This document shows, piece by piece, positions 13,115-32,000 of a stretch of DNA of 32,000 bases; the first letter of the stretch is position 1, and each line of letters begins with the position of its first letter. This DNA is from Chloroflexia bacterium (lineage in GTDB: Bacteria > Chloroflexota > Chloroflexia > Thermomicrobiales > CADCWN01), in NCBI GenBank assembly GCA_046328475.1, contig JAXLWN010000067.1:4263-36262 (forward strand), read 5' to 3'. The translations under genes were made by a program, and so were the position numbers. The notes beneath the pieces are model-generated. The model was not told where the DNA came from. It worked only from the letters and a program-made list of their open reading frames with translations, and searched no databases.

Positions 13115-13798
13115 ATGCGCGTTTCCCAGTGGTTCATTGTCGCGACCGCGTTGTTCGTCACCTGCCTGATCACCGCCAATGTCATCGCCGTGAAGCTGGT
13201 CGCCATCGGCGGGCAGATCCTCCCGGCCGGTATCGTCATCTTCCCCGTCAGCTACATCCTCGGCGATGTGTTGACCGAGGTCTACGGGCTCCGGCGGGCG
13301 CGCCTGGTCATCTGGACCGGCTTCGGTTGCAACGCGCTCTTCGTCGCGGCGGCGTGGCTCGGCGGGATCCTCCCGGCGGCCGGGTTCTGGGATGGTCAGC
13401 CGGCCTACGAGCGCATCCTCGGCTTCACCCCGCGCCTGCTCGCGGCGTCGTTGGTCGCGTACCTCGTCGGCGAGTTCGCCAATGCCTATGTGCTCACCTG
13501 GCTGAAAGCGCTCACCCGGGGGCGGTGGCTCTGGACCCGGACCATCGGCTCGACGCTCGTCGGCGAGGGGCTGGACTCGCTCCTCTTCGTGGGCCTCGCC
13601 TTTGCGGGCATCCTCCCGGTGCGGACGCTCCTGATCACCGCCGCCACACAGTGGCTGATCAAGACGGGCTACGAGGCGCTGGCGACGCCGCTCACCTACC
13701 TCGCCGTCGGTTTCTTCCGGCACGCCGAGGGTCGGGCCGACGCCATGCAGCCGGTCGGGTTCTCGCCAATGCCACTCCACGCAGGTGGCGACGACTGA
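13115..13798 (+). CDS. yhhQ: Queuosine-precursor transporter, YhhQ/DUF165 family
   Basis: Multi-pass membrane protein with ANVIAVKLV..G...PAGIVIFPVSYILGDVLTEVYG...AR.VIWTGF, characteristic of the YhhQ family. The ATG at 13115 follows tggaggt. It sits immediately upstream of queC. Confidence 0.8.
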   Translation: MRVSQWFIVATALFVTCLITANVIAVKLVAIGGQILPAGIVIFPVSYILGDVLTEVYGLRRARLVIWTGFGCNALFVAAAWLGGILPAAGFWDGQPAYERILGFTPRLLAASLVAYLVGEFANAYVLTWLKALTRGRWLWTRTIGSTLVGEGLDSLLFVGLAFAGILPVRTLLITAATQWLIKTGYEALATPLTYLAVGFFRHAEGRADAMQPVGFSPMPLHAGGDD

Positions 13799-13831
13799 CG
13801 ATCGGCGTGCAGTAGCCAGGAGTGGTGCGAC

Positions 13832-14549
13832 ATGGGCACGGAGCAGCGACCGGCGGTCGTGCTGTTGAGCGGTGGGCTCGATTCGACGACGACGCTGGCG
13901 ATCGCCAGGAGCCAGGGGTTCGAGGTCTACGCGCTCTCCTTCCGCTACGGCCAGCGGCACGAGGCGGAATTGGCCGCAGCGGCGCGCATCGCCGCAGCCA
14001 GCAACGTCGCCGAGCATGTGATCGTGCAGTTCGACCTCGGACGCTTCGGCGGCTCCGCGCTGACGGCCGACATCGCCGTGCCGAAGGGCCGCAGCCTCGA
14101 CGAAATGGGCGTCGGTATCCCAGACCATGTGCCGCGCGGAACACGGTCTTCTCCTGGCGCTAGCCTGGGCCGAGACGCTGGGGCGAGCGATATCTTTTAT
14201 TGGTGTGAATGCGCTCGATTACTCCGGCTATCCTGATTGCCGACGAATATATCGCCGCCTACGAGCAGATGGCGAACCCGGCGACGAAAGCGGGCGTCGA
14301 GGGGACCCAGCGCCTGACGATCCACGCCCTTGATCAGCATGACGAAGGCCGAGATCATCCGCAAGGGCCTGGAACTCGGCGTCGATTACAGCCAGACGAT
14401 CACCTGCTACGACCCCACGCCCGCTGGCGTCGCCTGCGGCGAATGCGATGCTTGCCTCCTGCGCCTGAAGGGTTTTGCCGAGAATGGCCTCGCCGACCCC
14501 GCGCCCTACCGAAATGTACCAGCCGCCGCAGACGCCAGCACGCCGATGA
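13832..14549 (+). pseudogene. queC: 7-cyano-7-deazaguanine (preQ0) synthase QueC, at least three frameshifts
   Basis: [12 protein letters not shown] (PP-loop SGGxDS), [11 protein letters not shown], then in other frames [52 protein letters not shown] and [41 protein letters not shown] (Zn Cys cluster). The end is inferred from a TGA overlapping the queD ATG (ATGA at 14546-14549). Confidence 0.85.
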
Positions 14550-14912
14550 CCAGGATCACGCTGCGACGCAAGGTCGACTTCTCTGCGGCGCAATGCCGGA
14601 AATGGGTAATTTACCGCGAAGTTGTCCATGGGCACAACTATTCCGTGGAGGCATTCGTGGCGGGCGATCCTGACGCGCGCGGCATGATCAAGCCGTTCGA
14701 GGAGATCGGGTCAAACGCGACCTTCAAGGAGCTGGTCCACGATCGTGGATATGACCACCAGACGCTCAACGCCAGCCCCATTCGATGAACTGTCGCCGAC
14801 TACGGAGAATCTCGCGCTCGTGTTCCTGGAAGCTCTCCGGGCGCGGGACGACCGCTACACCAAAGTGCGCGTCTGGGAGACCGACAACAACTACGCCGAG
14901 GCCGAGGCGTGA
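14546..14912 (+). pseudogene. queD: 6-carboxy-5,6,7,8-tetrahydropterin synthase QueD, frameshifted
   Basis: [15 protein letters not shown]..., [33 protein letters not shown]. In another frame, PTTENLALVFLEAL...KVRVWETDNNYAEAEA ends at the TGA at 14910-14912. Confidence 0.8.
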
Positions 14913-15562
14913 GCGCCGAGCGCGCTGGCTGGTACCAGCTCAACGAGCACTTCGACGATCCAGGGCGAGGGTGAGCACGCCGGGCGCACCGCCGTCTTCC
15001 TGCGGCTACAGGGTTGCCCTGTCGGCTGCGTGCGTGGTGCGACTCGAAGCTCACCTGGTACGCGGGCGGCGAGCGGCGGCATGACGAGCTGCTGGCGATC
15101 GTAGCGGGCTACCCCGACTGGAGTTGCTGGTCATCACCGGCGGGAGCCGCTGATCCACGACCTGATGTCGAGCGCCACCTGGCGCGCGAGACCCACCTGG
15201 AGACCTCCGGCGTTCACCTGGGTTCGGCGGGCAGCTGCGGCCCTGCTGGGTGACGCTCTCCCTGAAGGCGGTCGCAGGCTGGCGGTGGCGGACGACGTCC
15301 TGGCGAGCGCGGGCGAGTTGAAGTATGTCGATGAAGACTACGATCCCGGCGACGCTGCGTTACACCTTGCCGAATACCGACGCCTCACCGGCCGCCCCGC
15401 GCCGCCCGTGCGCCTGATGCCGGAGGGGGCACCGCCGCGCCAGGCGATGGTCGCGCGGACGCTGCGCTGCTGCGCGAGCACCCCGAGTGGCGCTTTGGCC
15501 CGCGCCTGCAATACAACTACCTGCCGTTTCGGACCTCGAAGGGGGGAACAACAAGCAGTTGA
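14909..15562 (+). pseudogene. queE: 7-carboxy-7-deazaguanine synthase QueE (radical SAM), many frameshifts; 3' end approximate
   Basis: The GTG at 14909 overlaps the queD stop (GTGA). Fragments include QGEGEHAGRTAVFLRLQGCPVGCV..CDSKLTWYAG (radical-SAM Cys cluster region), LLVITGGEPL, THLETSG, WVTLSPK and LLREHPEWRFGPRLQ. Confidence 0.7.
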
Positions 15563-30178: not shown

Positions 30179-30182
30179 GCGC

Positions 30183-30455
30183 TCATCCCTCCACCCCGGT
30201 CAACTCGGGGGCATCGATCGGTCGCGCGCCCGGTGCGTCGGGTGCGAAGAGTTGCTCGATGCTGGCGCGCAGCTCGGTCAGGCGCTGGGGATCGGTCACC
30301 AGCGCCAGCGTCCCATCGGGCGCGATTTCCAGCGCCGCGCCCGCGCCGAGATAGACCGCCGTCGCGGGCGGCGCGTCGAGCAGCCGCGCGTCGAAGCGAT
30401 CGCCGTGGGCGGCGCGCAGCGCCTGTAGCTCAGCCAACTGCTCCGGTGTGACCAT
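30183..30455 (-). CDS. Small (90 aa) hypothetical protein
   Basis: ORF MVTPEQLAELQALRAAHGDRFDARLL... sits between the helicase and the TPR-like gene. It is co-oriented with short gaps. No family recognised. Confidence 0.4.
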   Translation of the reverse strand: MVTPEQLAELQALRAAHGDRFDARLLDAPPATAVYLGAGAALEIAPDGTLALVTDPQRLTELRASIEQLFAPDAPGARPIDAPELTGVEG

Positions 30456-30476
30456 CTCCGGCCCGGCGGCGAGCCG

Positions 30477-32000
30477 CTACGGGTCGCCCCAGTCGCCCCA
30501 GCGCCGTGGCCAGGTCGTGCAGCGTGTAGGGCTGCAACGGCCGGGGCTGCGGCTGATCGGCAGGCGAGTTGCGGCACCCGCTCCGCGCCATACCCCTCGT
30601 CGCGCTCGTCGTCGCAGCCCACGGGGCCACCGAATGCCGCCCCGGCGACGAGCAGCGGCCCACGCTCGCCGAATCGCGCCAGGATCAGCTCGCGCACGAC
30701 GAAGAATTCCCAGCGCGCGGCATCCCGGCGACGGGTCAGCGGATCTGCCCCTTGCGCCCCTGCCCGCACCCGGATCGGCTCGTCCCAGGGCTCCAGTTCG
30801 AGTTCATACTGTGGCCCCTCCCCATCGAGCGCGACCGTGACCATCCGCGAGGCGACCGGCCGGACCTGCCGATCCATCAAGGAGAGCAGCAGCTGGCCGA
30901 GGAGGGGTGCCTGCGCCGGGCGATAGCGGATCCGCGCGCGGCGCTGTTGATCGAGCGACCGCAGGGCCGCGTTGCGGGCCAGGGTCGGGCGCGGATAATC
31001 GTCCAGCGAGACGATCGCCTCGCCGAGGGCGTCGCGGAGATAGGCGCGCAGCAGCAGGCGACTGAGCAGCAGCGGGCTGCGCCGTGGATCGAGCAGCGAG
31101 CAACTCGAGTCCTGCAAGCACTGGATACAGACATCGCCGCAACTGGCAAGCAGACGCTGGGCGATCTGCCTGCCGAGTGTGCCAACCGCGCCCGTGGCCG
31201 TATCGTCGTCGTCGGCATCGTCATCGGGACCGGCGTATCCGCTGTTTTCGGCCTGGCGCGCCGGCACCGCCCGGCGTGCCGTGGCACCGTGGTCGCGAAG
31301 GATCGTCCGGTAGAGGCGCTGGAGGGGTGTCGGATCGCCCCCGCCGTCGCCTGCGGCATCGACTTCCGACTCAACCTGCCGGGCGATAGCATAGCGCGCC
31401 TCGGTCAGCGTCGGCTCGCGGCCAAGTTCGTGCGCCAGCGCCTCCCAGCGGATCACGTTGATCTCCTTATAGAGCTGCCAGGAGGAGATTTCGCCGCCCG
31501 CCTTGAGCGCGATCGGCTCGGCGAAGAGGCGGGTCAGGAAGCGGAAATGCGCCTCGGTCAGCACGAAGCCGTGGCGCTCGCGGAAAGCGTCGGTGAGCTC
31601 GCGGATCAACTGATCGGCATCCGCACCGTCGAAGTTGAATGTCGCCTCGCGGATACGCCGGGCCAGTTCCGCCAATTCATCGTCCGGCAAGCGGAGCAAG
31701 GCCCGCCCGAACTGCTCGGCGGCGTGGACCTCGCACTCGGTTGCCTGCCGTTCGAAGACACGCCAGAAGAGTTGCGGTCGATCGCGGAACTCGCGCTGCA
31801 CAGCGTGCATGATCCCGATCCCGCCCGTGCCGAGTTCGTAGACGGTGATGCGCCCCGTCGCCGAGCCGACGTCCATGCGCAAATCGACCCAGCTCGCGAG
31901 CCGCGAGAGGGTTTCCACGCCGCCCACGCTCTCGCAGGTCTGCTTGAGGGCGTGTTCGAGGCTGTGGACGAACAGATCGTCGAGATAGTCGTCGAACCGG
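30477..32000 (-). pseudogene. C-terminal part of a helicase-associated DUF1998 (MrfA-type Zn/Cys-cluster) protein; 5' end outside window, about two frameshifts near the 3' end
   Basis: The reading frame is open to the window edge (…FVHSLEHALKQTCESVGGVETL...). VYELGTGGIGIM and the four-Cys cluster LASCGDVCIQCLQDSSCSLLD (31091-31150) match the DUF1998 C-x2-C-x2-C...C pattern. The last ~60 codons of track ORF 30296..31927 look out of frame. A better ending (PADQPQPRPLQPYTLHDLATALG..DWGDP*) stops at 30477-30479. Confidence 0.6.

Follow-up and report, generated by a model that had tools for sequence, protein, structure and literature searches.

Gene content of the island

The stretch of DNA analyzed here, referred to as the window, comprises 32,000 nucleotides of a Chloroflexia bacterium of the Thermomicrobiales (assembly GCA_046328475.1, contig JAXLWN010000067.1, positions 4,263 to 36,262 of the forward strand). 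From position 13115 to its end it carries two convergent gene arrays, which together form a putative island for the modification of DNA with a 7-deazaguanine and the restriction of unmodified DNA, related to the Dpd systems. A preceding reading made from the sequence alone (hereafter, the sequence-only reading) had recognized a Dpd logic in this island, namely a private supply of preQ0, a transglycosylase and a set of ATPase, helicase and nuclease genes, and family searches recovered all of these gene types. The window corresponds approximately to positions 4273-36272 of JAXLWR010000064.1 (48,415 bp), which belongs to the Thermomicrobiales metagenome-assembled genome GCA_046328415.1 and is referred to below as the public record. 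Since the listing of open reading frames (ORFs) returned fragmented genes, a codon-likelihood Viterbi translation allowing frame changes was used instead, and searches of Pfam, NCBIfam and PADLOC were performed on the frame-corrected translations.

In line with the sequence-only reading, the Pfam and NCBIfam matches bore out a co-directional plus-strand array that runs from yhhQ to a gene encoding a 119-residue protein, and the distance of 32 bp between the convergent stop codons at 22495 and 22528 was correct. The array opens with a YhhQ/Vut_1 transporter gene (13115-13798, +; Pfam PF02592, E = 3.6e-51), an intact ORF whose start agrees with that of the gene in the public record and whose product probably serves in the salvage of 7-deazaguanine precursors. 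It is followed by the genes for QueC, the preQ0 synthase (13832-14545, +; PF06508, E = 1.7e-44 on the frame-corrected translation, with about three frameshifts), QueD, a CPH4 synthase of the PTPS family (14546-14911, +; PF01242, E = 7e-18), QueE, the radical-SAM CDG synthase (approximately 14924-15540, +), and FolE2, the GTP cyclohydrolase IB (15675-16455, +; PF02649, E = 5.9e-53), the last of which is present as two ORFs in the public record. The queE gene is badly frameshifted: its N-terminal motif only was matched in NCBIfam (TIGR04322, E = 2.4e-8), the Pfam search gave no match, and the call is supported by the position of the gene within the pathway cluster.

The TGT-DUF5591 fusion enzyme

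The next gene of the plus strand (16515-18450, +; one frameshift near 17466) encodes a protein of about 643 residues in which an arcTGT-like transglycosylase is fused to an ArcS C1 domain (DUF5591). The two parts were matched in Pfam by TGT (5.9e-17) and DUF5591 (5.8e-13), and in NCBIfam by ArcS (1.7e-26; 93 bits against the cut-off of 440 of model NF040592) and TgtA (3.3e-26; about 92 bits against a cut-off of 350). The DpdA model (NF041059) reached just 0.0037, i.e. 16 bits against a cut-off of 200, and no PADLOC DpdA model was matched. Further, Pfam detected no PUA domain in the fusion, and of the tRNA-binding C2 and PUA domains of ArcS neither is present.

The transglycosylase motifs are of the arcTGT type (DSGG, LDYP), unlike the DpdA-type motifs GDCGAF and SLDH. 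Invariant among 22 family members were DSGG (D117), LDYP (D162), DSFDSS (D297 and D300) and the zinc site CxCxxC...H, together with the ArcS C1 motif PC-x3-KPY-x2-S-x2-H, which in the window reads PCSETKPYSESRSH. In a profile search against solved structures, the fusion sites aligned to D95, D130, D249, C279, C281, C284 and H307 of the Pyrococcus horikoshii arcTGT (1IQ8), and the C-terminal domain aligned with AF0587. By these alignments, both active sites of the fusion are conserved.

The fusion belongs to a well-conserved family whose architecture (PF01702 plus PF17884, approximately 620-690 residues) was found in 414 clusters, and public sources label members of the family as tRNA-guanine transglycosylases. 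In a literature search for DUF5591, a study of phage ArcS2 (PMC10516641) alone mentioned this domain; there, phage DpdA2 and a stand-alone ArcS C1 domain made 2'-deoxyarchaeosine (dG+) in plasmid DNA (Cui et al. 2023). With regard to the window, it is plausible that the ArcS-like domain takes the place of DpdC and modifies preQ0 further, as the sequence-only reading had suggested.

A DpdH-like NTPase and two small proteins accompany the fusion

Directly downstream of the fusion gene, the window encodes a protein of about 250-260 residues (18475 to about 19256, +), a P-loop nucleoside triphosphatase (NTPase) of about 960 residues (approximately 19257-22139, +) and the 119-residue protein (22136-22495, +), whose gene overlaps the stop codon of the NTPase gene. 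The NTPase is a distant homologue of DpdH; its gene carries several frameshifts in the window and is intact, with 962 residues, in the public record. This 962-residue version matched the NCBIfam DpdH model NF041065 with an E-value of 1.3e-19 (70 bits; the equivalog cut-off is 450). Four PADLOC DpdH models were also matched (best 8.4e-12), and BLASTP aligned the NTPase with Enterobacter DpdH at 1e-5 over 359 residues, the Walker A region included. The protein clusters with the haloarchaeal NTPases of two further loci, L062 and L077, and NTPases of the DpdH type have been called BrxC-like (Bell et al. 2025, bioRxiv 10.1101/2025.09.15.676423). Since the NTPase is DpdH-like and canonical Dpd possesses DpdB as well as DpdH (PMC10164549), it is no substitute for DpdB, the role in which the sequence-only reading had tentatively cast it.

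For the 250-residue protein, Pfam, NCBIfam and PADLOC were all without a match. A hidden Markov model built from its bacterial members reached haloarchaeal homologues at about 1e-10, and these reached the NCBIfam DpdG model at 5.6e-6, so that the protein is possibly a distant DpdG relative by way of this haloarchaeal chain. A direct profile comparison with Enterobacter DpdG was negative (probability 0.2%). The 119-residue protein occupies the position that DpdI has in canonical Dpd and showed no detectable similarity to Enterobacter DpdI. Homologues of it were found in the loci L001 (35% identity) and L084 (58% over 33 residues), and L092, L093 and L095 have 119-residue ORFs in the same position.

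Linkage and distribution of the fusion family

When 185,579 species genomes were scanned with the family alignment, 97 relatives were obtained, and 77 loci were kept; further loci were obtained by exact-protein look-ups and by a metagenome scan with the NTPase alignment. The order fusion, 250-residue protein, NTPase was observed in all 13 bacterial loci with the NTPase (the window, L001, L004, L056, L091 and L092-L099), the 250-residue gene lying directly downstream of the fusion gene in each of them. A small fourth gene often follows the NTPase gene and encodes 114-119 residues in five of the 13 loci. Together with the presence of a DpdJ-like helicase within 10 kb of the fusion in 17 other loci, this provides the conserved linkage of fusion homologues that the sequence-only reading had proposed to look for.

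The partners further downstream vary among the 13 loci. A DpdJ-like helicase adjoins the NTPase module in L004, L056, L097 and L098, and L092 and L093 have opposite-strand arrays, among whose products are a DEAD-box helicase and a second AAA ATPase, that converge on the four-gene module, an arrangement also present in the window. L001, the closest relative, has neither a helicase nor an AddB/UvrD pair of the kind described below within 10 kb; HATPase_c_3 and HNH genes are found there instead. Elsewhere, in Chloroflexota, cyanobacteria and haloarchaea, the fusion gene is followed by one for a DpdJ-like helicase of about 1350 residues (E = 6e-65) and, in several loci, by a small DpdK-like PLD gene. 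A DpdJ-like helicase was present in all four haloarchaeal loci and a strong DpdJ-like match in four of the eight Chloroflexota loci, while each of the 13 cyanobacterial loci with enough flank had a DpdJ-like helicase, a GmrSD and HEPN pair, or both. The haloarchaeal L062 and L077 share both the fusion and the NTPase families with the window.

Several further arrangements were observed around the family. The opposite-strand arrays of L092 (15612-22664) and L093 (8003-17574) encode a second DpdH-like AAA protein that has diverged strongly (up to 1613 residues), a 300-residue protein and the DEAD-box helicase, i.e. a second DpdG/H-like set within one island. L056, L097 and L098 each have two TGT-DUF5591 paralogues, one in the NTPase module and the other on the opposite strand beside a DpdJ-like helicase; the ArcS motif of the second L056 paralogue is degenerate. 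In L016, L055, L058, L061, L064 and L065 the fusion forms a compact unit with the DpdJ-like helicase of about 1350 residues and a DpdK-like PLD nuclease of about 160 residues, and units of this composition look like a minimal Dpd-like system as far as their gene content goes. Ten cyanobacterial loci (L002, L006, L007, L015, L030, L033, L046, L049, L051 and L052; at about 10-13.6 kb) have the fusion followed by GmrSD_N (DUF262) and HEPN genes in what looks like a three-gene unit, of which no description was found.

In Poribacteria, the fusion is widespread and sometimes occurs twice per genome; 17 of the loci adjoin an N6/N4 DNA methylase gene, and some of these also a MutH-like endonuclease gene. 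ArcS uses lysine, and ten Poribacteria loci have the fusion followed by genes for an aminotransferase, a cyclophilin and a lysine-2,3-aminomutase-like radical-SAM protein. A HATPase_c_3 protein (MORC/GHKL-type, about 530-645 residues) recurs near the fusion or near the AddB-like pair in bacterial and haloarchaeal loci (L001:16659-18596, L084:17546-19453, L062, L064, L065 and L077); the window showed no such protein. The viral contigs searched yielded no member of the fusion family, and a Scytonema plasmid (L090) that seemed to combine the fusion with a DpdB-like gene was rejected, as its 'tgt' proved to be of the DpdA type.

The minus-strand array: a RecJ-DpdJ helicase and an AddB/UvrD-like pair

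At the end of the window, the minus strand encodes the C-terminal part (about 600 residues; 30183-32000, -) of a helicase whose gene continues past the window end. This fragment matched DpdJ in NCBIfam (1.1e-8) and in PADLOC (4.1e-11). In the public record (L083:1-7136, beyond position 32000 of the window) the gene forms an ORF of 2073 residues, which matched the NCBIfam DpdJ model NF041067 at 7.7e-160 (534 bits, against a cut-off of 800) and PADLOC DpdJ at 1.2e-165, in addition to recJ (1.5e-33) and the Pfam domains DHHA1, RecJ_OB and DEAD. The first 288 residues of this ORF match the DHHA1 and OB half of RecJ, and the DNA just upstream contains frameshifted pieces with RecJ DHH motifs, e.g. 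LVITDHH; the protein is therefore a complete RecJ-DpdJ fusion.

Homology of the downstream genes to DpdD-K, which the sequence-only reading had held not to be establishable from the letters alone, thus exists for DpdH and DpdJ, and the "different parts list" that it ascribed to the island was overstated, since the NTPase and the helicase are homologues of these two proteins. Its designation of the latter as a DUF1998 helicase could not be upheld either: Pfam DUF1998/MZB was not detected, and the protein is a DpdJ homologue. The four-cysteine cluster of DUF1998 is reported to be lost in the DpdJ branch (Bell et al. 2025, bioRxiv 10.1101/2025.09.15.676423), which fits the window helicase. The remainder of the minus-strand array stood mostly as described (369-residue, 475-residue, AddB-like and UvrD-like proteins), with the exception of a separate 90-residue gene. 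A homologue search with the helicase fragment gave a single relative, P0121, which aligns unbroken across the 90-residue ORF (30183-30455), and this ORF is the C-terminus of the helicase, cut off by frameshifts.

At the opposite end of the array lie the genes for a UvrD/AddA-like superfamily 1 helicase of about 757 residues (22528-24798, -), frameshifted and without a nuclease domain, and for an AddB-like protein of about 920 residues with a PD-(D/E)xK-type C-terminus (24814-27568, -; one frameshift near 25340). The former matched Pfam UvrD-helicase (5.9e-44) and UvrD_C (5.7e-22), scored far under the NCBIfam cut-offs for AddA, RecB and PcrA (AddA, 185 bits against 708), and is 47-50% identical to the partner gene product that is always encoded downstream of the AddB-like gene. 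The latter matched Pfam PDDEXK_1 at its C-terminal end only (E = 1.1e-6) and no model of NCBIfam, that of AddB included, or PADLOC; four of its cysteines (C665, C901, C904 and C910) were invariant in 15 sequences. One AddB-like homologue, P0132, also bears a RecJ_OB domain.

Among 5.8 billion proteins, only 32 clusters belong to the AddB-like family, which makes it a rare one. In L084-L088 (10001 to about 15200 in each), the AddB-like protein (about 930 residues) and the UvrD-like protein (about 750 residues) form a fixed pair, and all five of these contexts are defense-type neighborhoods, four of them adjoining preQ0, dpd or dnd genes. The neighbors are QueD/C/E, FolE2, BrxC_BrxD proteins and the homologue of the 119-residue protein in L084; a DpdJ-like helicase, PLD, DpdD and DndB in L085; dndBCDE in L086; three helicases and Mrr and HNH nucleases in L087; and QueC/E/D, FolE2, a true DpdA (48% identical to Enterobacter DpdA) and a DpdC-like gene in L088. 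Such contexts suggest that the two proteins are a portable effector pair for DNA-modification systems, both phosphorothioate and deazaguanine.

Between the pair and the helicase, two intact ORFs encode proteins of about 475 (27645-29072, -) and 369 residues (29069-30178, -). The 475-residue protein had no significant family match in Pfam, NCBIfam or PADLOC and no homologue in the other AddB-like contexts. The 369-residue ORF, to which no gene call corresponds in the public record, has weak repeats resembling tetratricopeptide repeats (TPR; TPR-type Pfam matches at an E-value of about 1e-3, below the gathering scores). TALON, a Chloroflexota system with TPR-CSD, TBP and NERD parts, was considered on account of these weak matches and rejected, as no CSD, TBP or NERD was found.

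The sequence-only reading had recognized no ParB-like DpdB, no DpdC, no PLD nuclease and no methyltransferase, and indeed none of these was detected among the proteins of the 13-32 kb region at E<=0.01. Specifically, none of the 14 proteins of this region matched DpdB (ParB/DGQHR ATPase) or DpdC (DUF328) in Pfam, NCBIfam or PADLOC, and DpdD, DpdE, DpdF and the PLD nuclease DpdK were found neither in the window nor in the 5.6 kb of the public record that were read beyond it.

Flanking region and frameshifts

The flank at 1-12830 encodes proteins of metabolism and transport (an FAD monooxygenase, ABC transporter parts, an isochorismatase, a PLP decarboxylase, a luciferase-like oxidoreductase and a small-molecule O-methyltransferase), and the approximately 300 bp upstream of yhhQ are apparently non-coding. 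Neither an integrase nor a tRNA gene was seen at the island edge, and a tRNA gene scan of the whole window found none. A scan with Rfam matched no family in the window and hence no preQ1 riboswitch, and promoter and terminator signals at the island edge and at the convergent junction were not informative. The G+C content is 67% over the window, with no contrast between the island and the rest.

Most island genes are frameshifted (queC, queE, folE2 and the genes for the TGT fusion, the NTPase, the UvrD-like and the AddB-like proteins), with at least 15 frameshifts in the island genes of the window, and several of these genes are split in the public record too. The window and the record differ by 35 substitutions and by 56 indel bases in 40 gap openings, differences that cluster in five patches (11600-12700, 18580-20250, 23090-24180, 28980-29120 and 30561). 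They break different genes: the NTPase gene is whole in the record, while the 369-residue ORF is whole only in the window. In the frame-corrected read-out, frame shifts are about equally dense in the housekeeping genes at 1-13 kb, and codon bias, as G+C at third codon positions (GC3), is high throughout the genes. Because of this similar density, the different genes broken in the two sequences and their 99.6% identity with patchy differences, we read the frameshifts as assembly or sequence errors and not as decay of the island.

Proposed function and alternative explanations

Taken together, the island is probably a bacterial Dpd-family 7-deazaguanine DNA modification and restriction system, apparently related to haloarchaeal BRIGADE. 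From the homologies, the conserved catalytic residues and the gene linkage described above, we infer its substrate, its product and a restriction activity. FolE2, QueD, QueE and QueC would convert GTP to preQ0, with YhhQ salvaging precursors. The arcTGT-like half of the fusion would then exchange guanine in the cell's own DNA for preQ0, which is the job of DpdA in canonical Dpd, and the fused ArcS C1 domain would convert the nitrile, standing for the DpdC step, with dG+ or a lysine adduct as the likely product. The 250-residue protein, the DpdH-like NTPase and the 119-residue protein may act as an ATP-driven scaffold or sensor. The unwinding and degradation of unmarked DNA would fall to the RecJ-DpdJ helicase-exonuclease together with the AddB-like protein and the UvrD-like helicase.

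Several observations weigh against this interpretation. The fusion is, by its profile matches, nearer to the tRNA enzymes TgtA and ArcS than to DpdA, and the case for DNA marking by its family is wholly computational. In haloarchaea an additional TGT-only paralogue lies beside the fusion, and the TGT half of the latter may thus not be the one that inserts the base. About 44 Poribacteria loci (e.g. L008-L014 and L017-L029) have the fusion but lack any Dpd-like partner within 10 kb, so that a tie to restriction genes is not a constant feature of the fusion family. The ties of the 250-residue protein to DpdG and of the 119-residue protein to DpdI are, at the level of sequence comparison, indirect or absent. 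With regard to the putative effectors, no catalytic D/ExK motif could be assigned confidently in the 15 AddB-like sequences, and neither the AddB/UvrD-like pair nor the RecJ fusion was found beside the other fusion or NTPase loci, 90-odd in number, so that it is the window and L084 only that couple the pair to the plus-strand module. Lastly, given its many frameshifts, the window copy may be inactive.

These points bear on four other explanations. The most serious of them, although we consider it unlikely, is that two independent neighbors lie side by side, a complete system on the plus strand and a separate helicase-nuclease defense system on the minus strand. It would account for the closest relative, L001, doing without a helicase or an AddB/UvrD pair within 10 kb, for the different downstream partners across the 13 loci and for the occurrence of the pair with dnd genes, and no deazaguanine genes, in L086. 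However, DpdJ and DpdH work in one system in canonical Dpd (PMC10164549), a DpdJ-like helicase stands next to the NTPase module in L004, L056, L097 and L098, and the pair lies beside preQ0 or dpd genes in three of its five other contexts, one of which (L084) also has the homologue of the 119-residue protein. Markedly less probable is that the fusion acts on tRNA, as a bacterial synthase of the archaeosine type that has a preQ0 supply to itself and is unrelated to its defense-type neighbors. Its best matches (ArcS and TgtA, at about 1e-26), its alignment with the arcTGT structure and its name in public sources would favor such a role, as would the position of the Poribacteria gene among metabolic genes and the finding of no viral-contig member. 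Set against these are the missing PUA domain, the strict collinearity with a DpdH homologue across all 13 loci and the recurrence of the fusion beside DpdJ/DpdK-like or GmrSD and HEPN genes in four phyla; moreover, a distribution as rare and patchy as 97 matches in 185,579 species genomes is unexpected for a housekeeping tRNA enzyme.

We give an equally low probability to the window copy being a decaying pseudogene cluster with no current function. The 15 or more frameshifts of the island genes, several of which are also split in the record, would be in line with decay, but frame shifts are similarly dense in the housekeeping genes at 1-13 kb, GC3 is high across the genes, and 40 gap openings separate the window from the record, each having genes whole that the other has broken. 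That the minus-strand genes are an ordinary AddAB locus for double-strand-break repair is highly improbable: a UvrD-family helicase next to a four-cysteine protein with a PD-(D/E)xK tail does resemble AddA and AddB, yet the NCBIfam AddB model was not matched, the AddA score is 185 bits against 708, and the UvrD-like protein has no nuclease domain. Nor is the family the core repair locus that the sequence-only reading had named as a possible refutation, as it comprises 32 clusters in 5.8 billion proteins and stands in defense-type contexts in five of five other cases.

Beyond the window, we put forward more tentatively, and with less confidence than in the Dpd-family interpretation of the island, that the TGT-DUF5591 fusion might be a self-sufficient dG+ writer in cellular DNA. 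It would then define an undescribed family of modification modules, widespread among bacteria and archaea, with varied effectors (DpdG/H/I-like; DpdJ-like and a small PLD; GmrSD and HEPN; RecJ-DpdJ and AddB/UvrD-like), in which the AddB/UvrD-like pair might be a portable restriction module reading deazaguanine or phosphorothioate marks.

To our knowledge, 7-deazaguanine in the DNA of cellular genomes has been shown for canonical Dpd only, as dPreQ0 and dADG, and we know of archaeosine in DNA from phages only. If the proposal is true, bacteria could also mark their own chromosome with an archaeosine-type base by means of a single fusion enzyme of archaeal tRNA-enzyme ancestry, and the Dpd/BRIGADE family reaches beyond Proteobacteria and haloarchaea to Chloroflexota and other bacteria. 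The triad of fusion, 250-residue protein and NTPase would then be a defined minimal unit with which to study the roles of DpdG, DpdH and DpdI, and the AddB/UvrD-like pair a candidate restriction module common to deazaguanine and phosphorothioate systems. As the PADLOC-DB models catch the DpdH-like and DpdJ-like proteins only, a search with them would probably not report a complete Dpd system at this locus.

Comparison with known systems

The minus-strand pair shares with AddAB/RecBCD a UvrD-family superfamily 1 helicase and a large protein with four conserved cysteines and a PD-(D/E)xK-type tail. It differs in that the window helicase has no nuclease domain, the large protein matches no AddB model, and the family is rare and stands in defense-type neighborhoods. 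The fusion, in turn, has the TIM-barrel TGT domain, the catalytic aspartates and the zinc site of archaeal arcTGT (TgtA) and the C1 motif of ArcS, whereas it is without C2 or PUA, scores far under the cut-offs of both and is found in bacterial defense-island contexts. With phage DpdA2 and ArcS2 (PMC10516641) it shares the combination of a transglycosylase with an ArcS C1 domain bearing the motif PC-x3-KPY-x2-S-x2-H in the absence of PUA; however, the phage enzymes are two proteins that serve restriction evasion, while the window encodes a single cellular polypeptide with an arcTGT-like TGT half, linked to restriction-type genes. BRC systems (TGT and GNAT with HerA/PglZ; PMC12839542) were also considered and rejected, as none of their defining parts is present.

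Canonical Dpd (dpdA-K; Thiaville et al. 2016; Gedara et al. 2023, PMC10164549) resembles the island in having preQ0 genes beside a TGT-family enzyme and in possessing DpdH and DpdJ, of which the island has homologues, and the order small protein, DpdH-like protein, small protein mirrors dpdG-dpdH-dpdI. We propose that the likeness extends to the marking of the cell's own DNA and the restriction of unmarked DNA. The differences are that an arcTGT/ArcS-type fusion stands here in place of DpdA, that DpdB, DpdC, DpdD, DpdE, DpdF and the PLD protein DpdK were not found here, and that DpdJ has an N-terminal RecJ, with the AddB-like protein, paired with the UvrD-like helicase, as the candidate nuclease. 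All window scores are under the NCBIfam equivalog cut-offs, so that the window proteins are relatives and not members by NCBI criteria.

The closest published class is BRIGADE, described as a deazaguanine cluster with DpdG, DpdHI/BrxC, a DpdJ-like YprA helicase and a PLD or PD-(D/E)xK nuclease (Bell et al. 2025, bioRxiv 10.1101/2025.09.15.676423); the haloarchaeal L062 and L077 fit this description. The window shares with it the preQ0 genes, an NTPase clustering with those of L062 and L077 and a DpdJ-like helicase; its link to DpdG is indirect, through the haloarchaeal chain. On the other hand, BRIGADE has been published from halophilic archaea only, whereas the window belongs to Chloroflexota (Thermomicrobiales) and its relatives are bacterial or metagenomic. 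As a rule, BRIGADE contains a pair of YprA helicases, of which one is ARMADA-like with a BrxA-like insert, against the one YprA-family gene, and none of the ARMADA-like kind, seen here, and the haloarchaeal loci add a TGT-only paralogue and DUF6884 and HATPase_c_3 genes. The text of the BRIGADE paper names no RecJ fusion, AddB/UvrD pair, TGT or ArcS. The island is thus not categorically new, and the suggestion of the sequence-only reading that it may be an undescribed variant holds in part: a related class has been published, whose description is fitted by L062 and L077 with the same fusion and NTPase families, and the window probably represents a bacterial variant with this fusion.

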